Of a DNA stretch of 64,000 nucleotides, positions 790 through 30,349 are shown piece after piece (the stretch's first letter is position 1; every line of letters starts with the position of its first letter). The notes beneath the pieces are model-generated. The model did not search any database. It was not told the DNA's origin and saw only the letters and a list, made by a program, of their open reading frames with translations. A program made the position numbers and the translations under genes. This DNA comes from Escherichia phage vB_EcoM-ZQ3. Location: sequence record MW630116.1. One strand, written 5' to 3'.

Positions 790-3115
<2,326 letters not shown>

Positions 3116-7163: not shown

Positions 7164-8746
7164 TATTTTACCTTAATAATATAGTTTAAAGAAATATTCC
7201 ATGGACGAGTTTCATTTCCAATTAATTCTGGACGATTCATGGTATATTTAGAGTTACGCTGAGACGCTGGATCAATTTCATATCCTTCGTTAGTAAAATA
7301 TGAACGGTTATCCCAGTCAAGTCCTTTACGAGTACCAACAAAGTTTGAACGACGAGTATTACCAAATGCACCGGAATCATTGTGTTCGCCAAAACCACCA
7401 GCATGTTTATGATATGACATCTGTTGTTTTTGCACTTCACCGACATATCCACCAGTACAACCAACTCCTAAACGAGGTTTACCAAATTGGTCATTACCAT
7501 TAACATTAGGGTTAGTTAAATGTGTACCACGACCTGAGCCGCGAACAAATAATCCACGCATATCAGGCAAGCCCGGGTTAGAAGAGCTACCACCATATCG
7601 TGTCCCAATTCTGGAAGCATATACCGGACATTCTGAAGCAGAAACGGTCCCACCGTGACAGAAGCGCCAGTCAGAACTCGGTAAACTATCTGCAGCCCAC
7701 ATTGTAATAGAGCCAACAGGAAGAATTCGGTCTAATTCATTTTGAGTCACAATACGATTGCCTTGAATATAACCACCAGTCATATTGACATTACCAGTTA
7801 TATTAGCTCCACCAGAACCAACCGTCAACGTATTATTAATGCGAAGCGTGCCGTTAATAGTTTGTCCACCTCGTTGGTGGATAACATCAGCATTCCAAGC
7901 AAGGGCAGAAGAACCATCACCACCTGATTGGCTACCAGCTTGTGTAGTTAAACGAACAACTCCACGTAAAGAAGTTGTAGCCCCACGCCCGTTTAATGTT
8001 GCGCCTGTCACTACAGCTGAAGAGTTGTTACTATTTACTTCAGTCTGTGTCCCTAGTTTAACGACGCCTTTATTAGTTTCTGATGCTACTGAATTCATAA
8101 AGGTATAAGGTGAAATTGCATAGCCTTCACGCAGGGTGCCTTGTTGTGCTTGAGCAACTGTAGCCAAACGAACAACACCTGTAATAGATTCGGTGGCGTC
8201 ACTATTATTTGGAGCAATTTGTGAAATAAGTTTAATTGCTAATTGTTGCGTTTTTAACGGAGTCATTGCCGTTGTATCGTCAGAACCAGCTAATGCCGCA
8301 GCAGAAGTTGAAATTTTAATTACACCATTTGTTGCTTCTGTTGACACTTTTGTCTGAAATACATTGTCTATTTTTTGATTCAATTTAAGCGGAGTAATTG
8401 ATGCATCGTCAATAGCTCCGGTTACTGCTTCATCTTCAGTAGCATAACGAGTTAAACCATATTGTGTTTCGGTTGCATTAGGATATTGTAGACGAGCATT
8501 CAGTGTTGCCGGAGTAACAGCTTTACTATTATCTAATCCATCAATAACTTCTTGTGGAGTAGCTATTTGAATAATTCCTGGTGTAGTAGTTGTTGCTTCC
8601 GGTACGCCATTAACACCTGAAGGAGAAATAGCAGCTAATGCGGCTTGGACATTAGTGACTGTATCTGGAAAATTCGACCCCGTAGGGTCGAATTCAACGT
8701 AAACGGATTCGTTTGAAACGTGTTGGTATGTATTGTTATTACTCAT
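7163..8746 (-). CDS. 12: Short tail fibre protein gp12
   Basis: 527 aa; T4 gp12-like including the conserved C-terminal receptor-binding region. Confidence 0.9.
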
Positions 8747-18521: not shown

Positions 18522-19037
18522 TCACGGCCTCACATAAACATAGTTTCGTAATTGTTGAGCCCATTTGCTCCAATTTCCTACTATAGTTTTTGTATAAACC
18601 TTAGTAAGAGTTTTTTGTACTGGAGCCGGTGGAGGTTCTGTACCAGAGGCACTTCTAGAATCGCCTGATGAACTTTCTTCTTGGTAGTTATAAATCATTT
18701 CAACCGTATAACTAAACACTTTACGAAGATTCTGAGGAGCTCTCCACAAATATAACTGTGTGGATTCATCTTTTGGTAAATCATCCCATGAAGATGCGGT
18801 TTCAAAATCGTCATTTAATCGGTATTTCAATGCATCTGAAGAAAAGCTAAACACACTTTCATATGTTCCATATAAACGATTACCATCTACCGTAATGCCT
18901 TGTGTCGGTTCATAATCTGTTATATTTATTGACACTAAAGTTTCGGTTGTTTCTAACTGTGGAGTAAAAAGGACGTCAATAGACGCCCCTTCCATGTCTT
19001 CTCCTAAGTCGGTATTTAAAGGAAGTATATTAGCCAA
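18522..19037 (-). CDS. Hypothetical protein in the position of T4 gene 5.1
   Basis: 171-aa ORF between the endonuclease gene and 5.4; function unknown. Confidence 0.5.
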
Positions 19038-19893
19038 TTACTGAATTCTCCAATGGTGTAAATTTATAATCACATTTTTTCAATGCTTTTAAAATTGCGT
19101 TATAACTTACATCCGGTAGATTATGTTCAATTGCTTTTTCTCTAAACCATTTATATTTCTGCGGATGAGGTTTTCCCAAATCCTCCCAAAGTTTTTTGAC
19201 TTTTTCAATACTAATCCAAGGTTCAACTGATCTTAGTTTTTTATTTCTAGTATCTAATCTTGATTTTCTTATTAAAGGATTATTCCAGGATTTTTTCGTT
19301 CCTTCTATTTTTCCTGGATGATTAATTAATTTGTTTCTATATTCATCGGATTTCCATAAAGATTTGACAGTATTAGAAATACGAATTTTTAATGTGGGAT
19401 CATTTTCAAAAGCAGTTTTCATCGCATTACTCATTTTCTTTCGATATTCCGATTCCGAACATCTAAGTTTATTAATTTTTGAAATTTTTTCTGAAAATTC
19501 TTTTGTAGATTTTCCTTTTGCCAAAGCTTTAAGTTGAGTTTCTCGATACTCAGGATTAGACCACATTCGTTTTAAATCGTTTGAAGAAAATCCATCTCCA
19601 CCGTCTTTTATATTAACACACTGGCCTGTTTTTCTATATTCAGATATCCAAAATTTTTCTCTTTCATTTAAAACATCGAGTGTTGAAACGAATTCGATAA
19701 TTTCGAAATCTATAGCATAGCCTGGTTTGTTTTTAATCTTTTGTATATAATCCCCGCTTCCTACGTAATTATCATCCTCTAGATTAAAATATCTGGATTC
19801 ATGCTTTCCTATATATATTCGAACCAACCCCTTTGGGTTGGTTACTGTTGATTTATAAATGTAACGGAATTGTATGGTTTTGGATTTCTTCAT
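19030..19893 (-). CDS. Putative GIY-YIG homing endonuclease (seg-like) inserted between gene 5 and 5.1
   Basis: N-terminal FRYIYK...GLVRIYIGKH resembles the GIY-YIG motif; repeated W-x-[NS]-[PD]-EYR modules suggest DNA-binding repeats; AT-rich; own late promoter. Confidence 0.6.
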   Translation of the reverse strand: MKKSKTIQFRYIYKSTVTNPKGLVRIYIGKHESRYFNLEDDNYVGSGDYIQKIKNKPGYAIDFEIIEFVSTLDVLNEREKFWISEYRKTGQCVNIKDGGDGFSSNDLKRMWSNPEYRETQLKALAKGKSTKEFSEKISKINKLRCSESEYRKKMSNAMKTAFENDPTLKIRISNTVKSLWKSDEYRNKLINHPGKIEGTKKSWNNPLIRKSRLDTRNKKLRSVEPWISIEKVKKLWEDLGKPHPQKYKWFREKAIEHNLPDVSYNAILKALKKCDYKFTPLENSVIG

Positions 19894-19909
19894 AATTTAC
19901 CTCTGGAAT

Positions 19910-19917
19910 TATTTATA
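19910..19917 (-). promoter_or_regulatory. Late promoter TATAAATA for the seg-like gene, overlapping the gene 5 stop codon
   Basis: Plus strand tatttata; 17 nt upstream of the endonuclease ATG. Confidence 0.45.
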
Positions 19918-21649
19918 ACCCGACATCCACACGGCTACCATCAATTGTGTATTGTCCTGAAGCTACTGAGCTCATTGTAGACATTGTTTCCGCCCAATCC
20001 CCAGCAACAGTCATATCAACATTACCATTAACAGTCCATTTAACGTTTCCGTTGACTGTGTAATCATGATTCCCTTCGACCTGAGTTTTAGCATCGCCTT
20101 TAACAAGAATATCTGCATTTCCGTCAACAACTATTTTGATATTACCCTTAACGTAAAGAGTTCCATCGCCTTCAACAGTTTTAGATTGGTTACCACGAAT
20201 AAAGATTGTATCATTGCCGTCTATTTGATGGAGGCGGTCTGCCATGTTATAATATATTTCATTAGCACCAACGTTAACAAGCTTATCGCCAGAAATCAAG
20301 AAGTTCCCATCGCCATTAGTGATGTCAAAAAGGTCTTCTACAGTTTTACGAGTACGTCGCCCAGACGGAGAAACTTCCTCATATGACCCTGTTGGATGAA
20401 CTAAGCGATAACGTTCATTACCTGGAGTATCGTCAAATTCTTGGATATGACCGCTTTCTGTTTCCATAGCATGAACGTATGGATACTCACCACGATAACT
20501 TGATTCAGGTTCTTTAAAAAGGATACGTGAATCTAACGGAACAGGAGGACCAGCTGGGTCTTCTGGATCGGTATTTCTAGTAACTAAATCGGCACCAACT
20601 CCTGGTGAAGGTGGTGTTTTAACAGGAACGCCATATGATTCCATGTTACCGGTTAAAATAATTGTTGTTACACGTGAAGCACGCCCTTTAGTCTGTTGGA
20701 ACCATAATGAATCACGTCCGGATTTGTATGCGGTTTTCCAATCACCTGTGGCCATTGCTTTAAGCATAGTATTGAATTTTGCTACACCACCAACGCCCAT
20801 CTGGAAGCACATGTTTTCTAATGCCATTTGGCGAGATCTGTTCATTTTAGCATAAACAGGACCTACTTTAGAATTAGAACGAATGTCTTTCTGCATCTTA
20901 GCAAGGTCCTTCTCAAATAACGCTGTTGCTTCTTCTAATGTAATAGTTCCCGGATTTCCTGTTACTTCACGCCCTACTTGATCAGATAACAATTTATTAA
21001 TTCGAGACATATCTCGGGTTTTTTCCATTACTATAAGATGTCCAATACCTACTGTAGGATACCCGAGATGGTCCCAATACACTTTATCACGAAGACCTTC
21101 GTCACGACGTAACATTTCTGTTATTGTAAAATTAGGGTCATCATCTTCTGGAATATTTGCTAAATCTGTATCGTCTGGGTTTATACCATAATCCAAGTTG
21201 TTATCTTGAATTACGTTAGAGTTCGAATAATAACCAGCTTCACCACCTTGGTTTAGTACGTTCGTATCATTACCTAAACGTCGCGGATACTGGCCTGTCG
21301 GGTCTGAAAAACCTTCAAGTCTATTAGGCTTTTCACGTACTATTCCGCCATATGTACCAAGTACAATCCCGTTTGTTTTCCATTTGTCTAAGAAATGACC
21401 ATATACTCGAGTTCCTTCAACAGGACCTGTAACAGAACCACCAATACCTGACATTGATGCAGACGTAATAGGTTGAATAACAGTCATCCATGGAAGTTTT
21501 TCTGTAGGAATACCTTGTACATCACCTTGTGTTCTCTGCGCCGGATGAAGACCAACGACTCGAACTCGAACTCGCCCTTGTTTTAATGGGTCCATTCTGT
21601 CCTCGACAACACCCACGAACCAATTAAGGCTACTGCTAATCATTTCCAT
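19913..21649 (-). CDS. 5: Baseplate hub / cell-puncturing protein gp5 with tail lysozyme domain
   Basis: 578 aa; lysozyme-like core (GYPTVGIGHLI...) and C-terminal beta-helix repeats as in T4 gp5. Confidence 0.9.
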   Translation of the reverse strand: MEMISSSLNWFVGVVEDRMDPLKQGRVRVRVVGLHPAQRTQGDVQGIPTEKLPWMTVIQPITSASMSGIGGSVTGPVEGTRVYGHFLDKWKTNGIVLGTYGGIVREKPNRLEGFSDPTGQYPRRLGNDTNVLNQGGEAGYYSNSNVIQDNNLDYGINPDDTDLANIPEDDDPNFTITEMLRRDEGLRDKVYWDHLGYPTVGIGHLIVMEKTRDMSRINKLLSDQVGREVTGNPGTITLEEATALFEKDLAKMQKDIRSNSKVGPVYAKMNRSRQMALENMCFQMGVGGVAKFNTMLKAMATGDWKTAYKSGRDSLWFQQTKGRASRVTTIILTGNMESYGVPVKTPPSPGVGADLVTRNTDPEDPAGPPVPLDSRILFKEPESSYRGEYPYVHAMETESGHIQEFDDTPGNERYRLVHPTGSYEEVSPSGRRTRKTVEDLFDITNGDGNFLISGDKLVNVGANEIYYNMADRLHQIDGNDTIFIRGNQSKTVEGDGTLYVKGNIKIVVDGNADILVKGDAKTQVEGNHDYTVNGNVKWTVNGNVDMTVAGDWAETMSTMSSVASGQYTIDGSRVDVGL

Positions 21650-25038: not shown

Positions 25039-25724
<686 letters not shown>

Positions 25725-26088: not shown

Positions 26089-26157
26089 GTAGTTTACATG
26101 CTGATAGGACTATGTTATAGTAGTCCTATCAAATCAACAACCAAACGGAAAAAACAA

Positions 26158-26421: not shown

Positions 26422-26483
26422 TAGTTTACATGATGATAGGACTATGTTATAGTAGTCCTATCAAAACATGAGAGGATAATAAA

Positions 26484-29619: not shown

Positions 29620-30240
29620 ATGTATACTTTTAATGAATTTTTAGCCGAAACGGAAGTAATCACCGAAGCCGGCGTACGTATGACAAAAGAGAAATGGCAA
29701 GCTGCTTACGATGCTATTTCTGGTACAAAAACTAGTACAGAGTTTTTCAAAAACGTTCAAGCCATGTACGGTATCGACACTTCTAGCCAAAAAGAATATT
29801 ACAGAGCTTCTAAAGCATTCAAAGATATTGTTAGTGGTGGTGTTTCTGCTAAATCGGGTTCGCCTAAAGTAAAACCTGCTCCTACCATTCCTAAACCTGC
29901 GACCCCTAAAGCAAAACCTGAGCCTAAGCCTGAAGTAAAAGCAACTCCTAAAGCTCCTGCTCTTAAGTTTGATACTTCTAGCCTGGAAAAAAAATATAAA
30001 CAACTATCTTCGCTTGTTCGTGATATTGAATCCGATACATCTTCACTCGTTCGTGAATTCAATATTCTTCGTAATGGCCAACATATCAACAACCTTGATA
30101 CTCCAGACCTTTATCGTCTTTATTTGACTATCGAAGGTTTGAAGTATACTCAACCACTTCACGATGCGATTAAAGAAAAACTTCGTCAGGCAGGTCGTTT
30201 GGCTGCTGACGCTGCTCAGTATGCAAAAACTCGTAAGTAA
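29620..30240 (+). CDS. Internal-protein-like gene with capsid-targeting-type N-terminus and Pro/Lys-rich linker
   Basis: MYTFNEFLAETE resembles the capsid-targeting peptide; low-complexity PKPATPKAKPEPKPEVKATPKAP region; 206 aa. Confidence 0.55.
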   Translation: MYTFNEFLAETEVITEAGVRMTKEKWQAAYDAISGTKTSTEFFKNVQAMYGIDTSSQKEYYRASKAFKDIVSGGVSAKSGSPKVKPAPTIPKPATPKAKPEPKPEVKATPKAPALKFDTSSLEKKYKQLSSLVRDIESDTSSLVREFNILRNGQHINNLDTPDLYRLYLTIEGLKYTQPLHDAIKEKLRQAGRLAADAAQYAKTRK

Positions 30241-30349
30241 AGAATGGGGACTTCGGTCCCCATTAGGGGGTCTATAACTTACTAAAAAAGTTGTTTACTT
30301 CTTCCCTAGTTGTGTTACTATAGTCCTATTAAAACATGAGGAGAATATT

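Follow-up and report, generated by a model that had tools for sequence, protein, structure and literature searches.

We propose that a free-standing homing endonuclease cassette of the Seg (GIY-YIG) type has been inserted into the end of gene 5 in Escherichia phage vB_EcoM-ZQ3 (MW630116.1). The cassette was found in a stretch of 64,000 nucleotides (nt) of this genome, hereafter the window, and is built around an open reading frame (ORF) of 287 amino acids (aa) that starts with ATG and lies between genes 5 and 5.1 (19030..19893, minus strand), as had been stated in an initial annotation made from the sequence alone. This proposal, including the mechanism set out below, seems likely to us. The judgement spans two claims: that the cassette belongs to the Seg-type homing endonucleases, of which we are very confident, and that the gene is currently active in homing, which we consider fairly probable by analogy with related enzymes. 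The fold and family of the protein, the exact site of presence or absence, the structure of the cassette, its mosaic flanks and the selection acting on the ORF have been observed directly.

The Seg-type identity of the protein, first proposed as a GIY-YIG-like endonuclease, is supported by PHROG, family-profile, BLASTP and tblastn matches. The ORF matches PHROG 314 ('homing endonuclease', 7e-20), and an alignment with the T4 Seg proteins, suggested earlier as a check, retrieves T4 SegC (BLASTP 3e-8, 32% identity over 122 residues), while tblastn yields 4e-9 with genes annotated as segE and 3e-4 with segF. Absence of a GIY-YIG domain in a profile search had been named as the result that would speak against an endonuclease, and here the outcome depends on the type of search. 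Pfam and NCBIfam give no such domain for the single sequence (the NCBIfam scan has no nuclease match at all), and phmmer against PDB sequences reaches the catalytic domain of I-TevI at E=0.2 only. A profile of six family sequences (A2), in contrast, finds the I-TevI catalytic domain 1LN0 with E=2.3e-6, and a profile of 56 sequences (A3) does so with E=5.3e-9. Both profiles cover residues 4-93 of the 97 residues of 1LN0, i.e., the whole domain, and place the seg-like protein in the GIY-YIG fold. A homologue search in 5.8 billion sequences gave relatives at 3.6e-8, and the profile search thousands of them, many with NUMOD3 (PF07460), SegE_GIY-YIG (PF19835) or GIY-YIG (PF01541) domains. Pfam misses this SegE-like subgroup, and most records label the gene a 'hypothetical protein'.

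Three parts can be distinguished in the protein. The GIY-YIG catalytic domain comprises residues 1-105 (19579..19893, minus strand). The N-terminal motif that had drawn attention to the ORF is present in the translation as RYIYK (residues 10-14) and RIYIGKH (residues 25-31), in an N-terminus that includes FRYIYKSTVTNPKGLVRIYIGKH; the domain is further marked by YIY at 11-13, YIG at 27-29, Y-x-GSG at 43-47, E79 and N94. Residues Y13, Y27, G29, E79 and N94 correspond to Y6, Y17, G19, E75 and N90 of I-TevI and are invariant in 56 relatives. The second part, residues 106-224 (19222..19578, minus strand), is a helical linker of approximately six putative, degenerate NUMOD3-like units. It aligns with the NUMOD3 repeats of relatives in which PF07460 does score (best E 4.9e-13), and the structure model has consecutive helices over residues 104-223; PF07460 itself is not detected in the seg-like protein by Pfam. 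Several W-x-[NS]-[PD]-EYR repeats had been reported for this region. Two of them are exact (MWSNPEYR, LWKSDEYR) and the other two degenerate (CSESEYR, SWNNPLIR); on the basis of the alignment and the model, we read the repeats as putative degenerate NUMOD3-like units. The third part, residues 225-287 (19033..19221, minus strand), is a three-helix, helix-turn-helix-like module of about 45-60 aa, presumed to be the DNA-binding and specificity domain. No Pfam family covers this module. It occurs in the gene's own group, in a more distant seg-like protein of the same architecture, and in two copies in an HNH-type protein (motif recognized by eye; Pfam found no family), a distribution that represents the module shuffling typical of the DNA-binding regions of homing endonucleases.

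The gene is present in 34 phage records, whereas the site is empty in about 600, approximately 490 of them T4-like and 105 close to the Mosigvirus type, and this comparison, likewise suggested by the initial annotation, confirms an insertion. F2 and two partial CEV1 contigs carry the ORF at a nucleotide identity of at least 99%. At approximately 82.5% it is found in 30 Tequatroviruses, all with the ORF between genes 5 and 5.1, among them T6, ACG-C40, fPS-2, PYPS2T and vB_SsoM_113; an uninterrupted T4-type junction is present in 489 of the 531 Tequatrovirus-type records. IMG/VR adds one further copy only. A protein identical over its full length (100%) is encoded by F2 and 13 metagenome or genome contigs. 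Over its first 24 kb, the window shares 98% identity with the Mosigvirus-type phages JS09, ST0 and HX01. Among the ~107 close relatives of the window (95-99% band), F2 alone covers 100% and the others miss about 4%, which equals the insert; with a 2-kb query centred on the ORF, Mosigvirus-type relatives match in two pieces from which the ORF is missing. HX01 has gene 5 followed directly by gene 5.1. T4 has 34 nt and no insertion between the two genes, and its segC is located on the far side of 5.1 (5.1-5.3). The idea that the seg-like gene and segC exclude each other around gene 5.1 was discarded: T4_ev151 (L022 3026-4998) carries both, the gene at the 5/5.1 junction and a full-length segC, flanking gene 5.1.

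These carriers show a gene of the Seg type that has crossed between Tequatrovirus and Mosigvirus backbones. According to Petrov et al., T6 contains six seg-like genes and RB69 none (PMC2993671), and RB69, the type phage of Mosigvirus, is listed without homing endonuclease genes (PMC2993671). As a side observation, F2 (L001 / NC_054913) is filed as a Tequatrovirus ('Tequatrovirus efftwo'); over the 24 kb compared, both F2 and the window share ~98% of their sequence with JS09, ST0 and HX01, and only 65-85% with T6. Judged by these identities, the genus assignment of F2 looks doubtful.

The structure of the cassette becomes apparent when T4 and T6 are compared, which are 97-100% identical on both sides up to both insert edges. 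The insertion site lies 22 nt before the end of tail-spike gene 5. Here, the T4 junction reads ATTGATGG, ATCGAGGATTGAC and ATTGGCTAATATACTTCC in succession, and the middle part of 13 nt is replaced in T6 and in the window by ~899 nt (window 19937..19039). Beyond ATTGATGG, roughly half of the 21 positions that follow are changed between T4 and T6, and most of these changes are synonymous (e.g., TCG to AGC, AGG to CGT); from ATTGGCTAATATACTTCC onwards, and exactly there, the two sequences agree again. The insert starts with TAGCCGT(G/A)T(G/A)GA(T/C)GT(C/A)GG(G/T)TTATAA and brings its own, recoded end of gene 5 (19913..19937, minus strand), which encodes S-R-(V/I)-D-V-G-L-stop as compared to S-R-I-D-I-G-stop in insert-free phages. 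All three alleles analyzed (window, T6 and the metagenome allele L009) share AGC CGT ... TTA TAA. The extra Leu codon TTA completes the late-promoter box TATAAATA and creates TTATAAATA, stop codon and box in one. At the other edge, gene 5 of T4 ends with ...GAC ATT GGC TAA TATACTTCC, and these ancestral last two codons and stop, ATT GGC TAA (19030..19038, minus strand), now serve as the last two codons and stop of the seg-like gene. The element has thus inserted harmlessly into the last codons of a structural gene that is essential, by bringing a substitute C-terminus and reusing the stop codon of its host. A side effect is that gp5 is longer by one residue in every carrier, at the tip of the cell-puncturing spike protein. 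We found no published description of this in-frame takeover of the gene 5 end, nor of a cassette of the Tequatrovirus type within a Mosigvirus backbone, the mosaic structure of the gene or the hairpin described below.

The same short segment provides a predicted T4-type late promoter (TATAAATA, 19910..19917, minus strand), a prediction that draws on sequence, conservation and the annotation of fPS-2. The initial annotation had placed a minus-strand box of the gene's own over the gp5 stop. Indeed, TATAAATA at 19917-19910 spans the TAA at 19915-19913 with 16 nt to the ATG, and it is brought by the cassette: it is not present at the insert-free junctions of T4 and HX01. A GAGG ribosome-binding site (19900..19903, minus strand) is situated 6 nt before the ATG and is kept in all alleles. 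The box, too, is kept in all three alleles (window, T6 and L009), which are saturated at their other synonymous sites, and the record of Yersinia phage fPS-2 already annotates a 'predicted late promoter' on it. Counting alone is of little help, as TATAAATA is not enriched in the window (11 occurrences versus 8.5 expected). Its placement is non-random and is the only informative feature: one of the 11 boxes falls wholly within a long ORF, and six lie 16-35 nt upstream of an ATG-initiated ORF on the same strand. The promoter region and the empty site are alike at ~11 of 20 positions (by eye), as expected from the shared ancestry of the gene 5 end. Within the Mosigvirus-type backbone the cassette box adds a second late-promoter consensus, between the boxes upstream of gene 53 and of gene 9.

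Two further observations were made on this part of the operon. In Tequatroviruses, a TATAAATA lies within gene 5.1, 65 nt in (T4, L005 4287-4294; T6, L006 3974-3981). This internal box is mutated to CAATAAATA in the Mosigvirus-type backbone of the window (~18925-18935), which leaves the box of the cassette as the sole late-promoter consensus between genes 53 and 9 on that strand. A hairpin sequestering the ribosome-binding site, as in I-TevI, segB or mobE, is not supported: the 131-nt region that precedes and spans the ATG folds no better than its shuffles (z=-0.66), and RNAalifold returns around the ribosome site a weak stem of A-U pairs only, with no covariation.

Marker-by-marker reading of the junctions delimits a Tequatrovirus-like tract, i.e., the cassette plus short co-converted flanks (19021..19946, minus strand), in a Mosigvirus-like backbone. 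The window and HX01 are 95-100% identical on both sides of a gap from ~19960 to 19040. The upstream end of the tract could be read in eight of the 13 contigs encoding the identical protein, all eight of the Mosigvirus type. The window and five contigs switch within ~45 nt of the ORF; in F2 and two other contigs the T4/T6-type markers extend ~40 nt further upstream. These tracts show at least two upstream crossover points, as variable co-conversion or repeated recombination would leave them, which is consistent with homing but no proof of it.

The gene itself is a mosaic as well. The window and T6 alleles share 86% of their amino acids and 82.5% of their nucleotides overall, unevenly distributed. 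Residues 151-287 (the 3' ~400 bp) are 94% identical to T6 at the nucleotide level, with a synonymous divergence (dS) of 0.23, whereas for residues 1-150 this identity drops to 71-72% with saturated dS, and the catalytic half shares 76% of its amino acids; L009 is ~73% identical throughout. To judge from these alignments, the window allele is a recombinant. All three alleles have open frames, and their ratio of nonsynonymous to synonymous divergence (dN/dS) is 0.06-0.12 in every segment, the catalytic domain included, so that the protein as a whole, with its catalytic domain, is under purifying selection. The low G+C content of the ORF (0.285-0.305, versus 0.38-0.42 in both flanks) agrees with its earlier description as AT-rich relative to its neighbours.

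Based on SegA, B, C, E, F and G (PMC2988022), a model for the activity, target, timing and immunity of this enzyme can be drawn by analogy. The enzyme would be made late, from its own TATAAATA, by read-through of the late transcript that covers genes 53 and 5, or by both routes. When a carrier and a relative devoid of the gene infect the same cell, the C-terminal part would bind the intact gene 5/5.1 junction, for which we propose a concrete target, the last ~25 nt of gene 5 together with the 5/5.1 spacer. The tethered GIY-YIG domain would then cut near the bound junction, and recombination-dependent repair would copy the cassette from the carrier, along with a variable stretch of flanking markers. 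The carrier would be immune, as the insertion splits its target and the half in gene 5 is recoded.

Several points weigh against this proposal. At the level of the protein, Pfam-A matches neither PF01541 nor PF19835 in the single sequence at E<=1, and Foldseek with the full-length model yields no match. A counterpart of the I-TevI residue R27 was not identified, the family profile having an insertion at this segment; the seg-like subgroup has the invariant Y-x-G-S-G motif instead, and T4 SegC, which shares the motif, likewise has no aligned R27 counterpart. At the level of the gene, the 16-nt gap between box and ATG is the shortest of six comparable boxes (24-35 nt in the other five) and would imply a leader of ~10 nt. 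The Mosigvirus allele is 17% diverged from the T6 type, meaning that the transfer between the genera is not recent. Seg enzymes such as SegF and SegG often cut tens to hundreds of bp from the insertion site. The searchable literature, finally, contains no report of cleavage, homing or transcripts for this gene or its T6 orthologue.

An alternative is a descendant of a homing endonuclease that no longer homes and is kept for the gp5 end, stop and promoter it supplies or as a DNA-binding regulator, e.g., an autorepressor at its own promoter, as in the case of I-TevI. Taking both variants together, we regard this as unlikely, albeit as the most serious competitor, and an autorepressor operator at the promoter is speculation. 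The cassette does provide a promoter as well as the end of an essential gene, embedded promoters favour the retention of such genes (PMC2988022), what is left of the target is recoded and overlaps the promoter box, and the gene is rare with old and diverged alleles. However, the catalytic domain is under purifying selection as strong as that on the rest of the protein (N-terminal dN/dS 0.06-0.12), all alleles retain the catalytic Tyr, Tyr, Glu and Asn, and one and the same protein is flanked by differing conversion tracts, which speaks for ongoing exchange.

Still less probable is an active nuclease that mainly benefits the phage, by marker exclusion or by local recombination or amplification of neighbouring genes. 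Recombination junctions do cluster at the cassette, and its neighbours are the spike-tip genes 5, 5.1 and 5.4, for which an exchange of host-range or penetration modules could matter; in addition, SegB is reported to promote the amplification of anti-defence loci in T6 (PMC13096335). On the other hand, no anti-defence cargo is apparent in the locus, where the cassette consists of the endonuclease alone, and the molecular mechanism would be the same as for the homing cassette, hence the two explanations are not exclusive. That the ORF is no nuclease but an AT-rich accessory gene whose N-terminus resembles GIY-YIG by chance would suit the unmatched single-sequence Pfam and NCBIfam scans and the negative Foldseek result, yet it is close to refuted, since profiles, fold and pairwise alignments all point to GIY-YIG and Seg proteins.

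Among known systems, the homing cassette proposed here has its orthologue in T6. The initial annotation had left undecided whether the gene corresponds to a named T4 seg gene: it is seg-like, but is none of the named T4 seg genes, the T4 5/5.1 junction being empty, and the counterpart is 'T6ncORF142, seg-like' (AXN58183.1). Together with ~30 Tequatrovirus copies, T6ncORF142 occupies the same insertion site and has the same anatomy, with the recoded gp5 end and extra Leu, TATAAATA, GAGG and an ORF ending in ATT GGC TAA; the difference lies in the backbone, which is Tequatrovirus in T6-type copies and Mosigvirus-like in the window. The T6 gene is annotated as 'seg-like hypothetical protein', that of vB_SsoM_113 as 'Seg-like homing endonuclease, GIY-YIG family' and that of fPS-2 as 'homing endonuclease'. 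Our literature search found neither a name nor a characterisation of the gene, and no report on where T4_ev151 comes from. The gene is most like the SegE/SegC subgroup, with an orthologue that is already annotated, yet unnamed and uncharacterised. This work thus adds an uncharacterised, unnamed member to the classic T-even Seg family; the current understanding of homing endonucleases is not changed by it, and the details are of modest specialist interest.

T4 SegC belongs to the same family, with 32% identity over the catalytic domain and the YxGSG, E and N-x-K-x-GG motifs in common. Its gene resides in the same operon, one gene (5.1, 495 bp) away, but differs in insertion site and C-terminal region. 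SegC passes Pfam PF19835 and appears among the active enzymes in Table 1 of PMC2988022, and segC has no promoter (PMC2988022), unlike the box-bearing seg-like gene. In passing, we noted that T4 segC (140 aa) and 5.3 (56 aa; L005 4697-5292) are the halves of a 196-aa ORF that is intact in T4_ev151 (L022 4408-4998). A single difference disrupts the frame, the loss of 1 nt in GGGCCTAGAGGG(C)CTAGAGG of the T4 record, from which it follows that either the reference SegC is without its C-terminal domain or the T4 record has a frameshift.

By tblastn, the closest paralogues are SegE-like proteins (annotated as segE in RB68 and AR1; PF19835), which are ~24% identical along 91% of the length (E=4e-9). 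As in the seg-like protein, a long spacer separates YIY from YIG in these paralogues, and the YxGSG motif is present. Two of them, Merci gp266 and the segE-annotated gene of RB68, escape detection by Pfam just as the ORF of the window does. Their genes are located at other loci (nrdC; uvsY/uvsW regions) and have different C-terminal modules. I-TevI, encoded by the T4 td intron, has the same catalytic fold and the same layout of nuclease, linker and C-terminal DNA-binding domain, and its ORF has a late promoter directly upstream (PMC2988022), comparable to the predicted promoter box of the seg-like gene. Unlike I-TevI, the latter is free-standing, with no Arg27 counterpart found, no zinc finger evident and no significant hairpin sequestering its ribosome site.

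A different hairpin is found inside the 5' coding region of the seg-like gene. This perfect 9-bp stem with a 4-nt loop (19822..19843; strand not assigned) covers codons 17-24 (VTNPKGLV) in the spacer between YIY and YIG; it recurs in T6 (L006) at 3058-3079 and in L009 at ~124-145, with energies of -11.5 to -14.5 kcal/mol across the three alleles. Perfect hairpins of such kind occur six times in the 64-kb window against about three expected by chance. In the T6 allele all nine pairs are kept, three of them changed on both sides, in each case at synonymous third positions; the L009 allele keeps eight pairs. The chance that three third-position pairs stay complementary is ~0.04-0.12 by a hand estimate for saturated synonymous sites, which is suggestive, but no proof. 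Of three SegE-like paralogues at other loci, two have a perfect stem within this spacer or next to it (10 and 7 bp), and the RB68 copy has only a weak one. T4 SegC has no such stem and the distant homologue P0121 a 5-bp inner stem only; conservation of the hairpin is thus not universal. That the hairpin created the longer YIY-YIG spacer was ruled out, as this spacer is shared by the SegE-like paralogues.

It is possible, though less likely than not, that the hairpin is itself a selected nucleic-acid element and no mere consequence of the protein sequence. Intragenic terminators of mobE and segF have a GC-rich stem with a 4-nt loop at the 5' end of the ORF (PMC2988022), which the hairpin of the window resembles, although its U-rich tail is antisense and theirs is sense. 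By analogy with these two, it could be an attenuator of the endonuclease. Given the U-rich tail on the other strand, an antisense terminator is an alternative: it could stop transcripts of the AT-rich insert that run backwards into gene 5 and oriE, the antisense replication origin that lies ~330 bp away in T4. Terminator criteria flag the strand antisense to the gene in the window and T6, not in L009, and on this strand a sigma-70-like match (10/12) is present ~180 nt upstream. If true, the cassette would, in combination with the borrowed gp5 end and stop, be closely adapted to its host and shield a late operon that is essential from the presence of the cassette itself.

The neighbours of the seg-like gene are gene 5 (578 aa; 19913..21649, minus strand) upstream and gene 5.1 (157 aa; 18522..18995, minus strand) directly downstream, the latter named after the annotation in F2, T4 and T6. 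Gene 5.1 is assigned PF26906 Phage_T4_Y07E through an identical gene in contigs, and its start is not touched by the insertion. A 171-aa ORF with a TTG start that overlaps the stop of the seg-like gene is an ORF-listing artefact; the conserved ATG at 18995, preceded by AGGAG, is the start of gene 5.1 and is annotated as such in F2, T4 and T6. HX01 (L002 2985-3010; window 19021-19037) has ~10 extra nt (ATGGCACAAA) after the gene 5 stop, which in HX01-type phages provide an in-frame ATG further upstream, and there the annotation lets a 171-aa 5.1 begin. The Tequatrovirus-type right edge of the cassette removes this upstream ATG and a TTG remains. From its position behind AGGAG, the ATG at 18995 is likely the true start of gene 5.1 in HX01-type phages and carriers alike.

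Elsewhere in the window, two near-identical, early-promoter-like copies of ~45 nt (GTTTAC ... TATAGT) are present at 26090-26135 and 26422-26467 (plus strand). They overlap a perfect 11-bp stem with an 8-nt loop and bracket a small ORF (ATG 26159, stop 26421), and they resemble the 'promoter-early stem-loop' mobile regulatory cassettes of T4-type phages (PMC2839356). Other perfect hairpins of at least 9 bp are located at 30243-30264 (plus strand), 8671-8694 and 25334-25356; one of these has the CTTCGG tetraloop typical of T4 terminators and directly follows an ORF ending at 30240.

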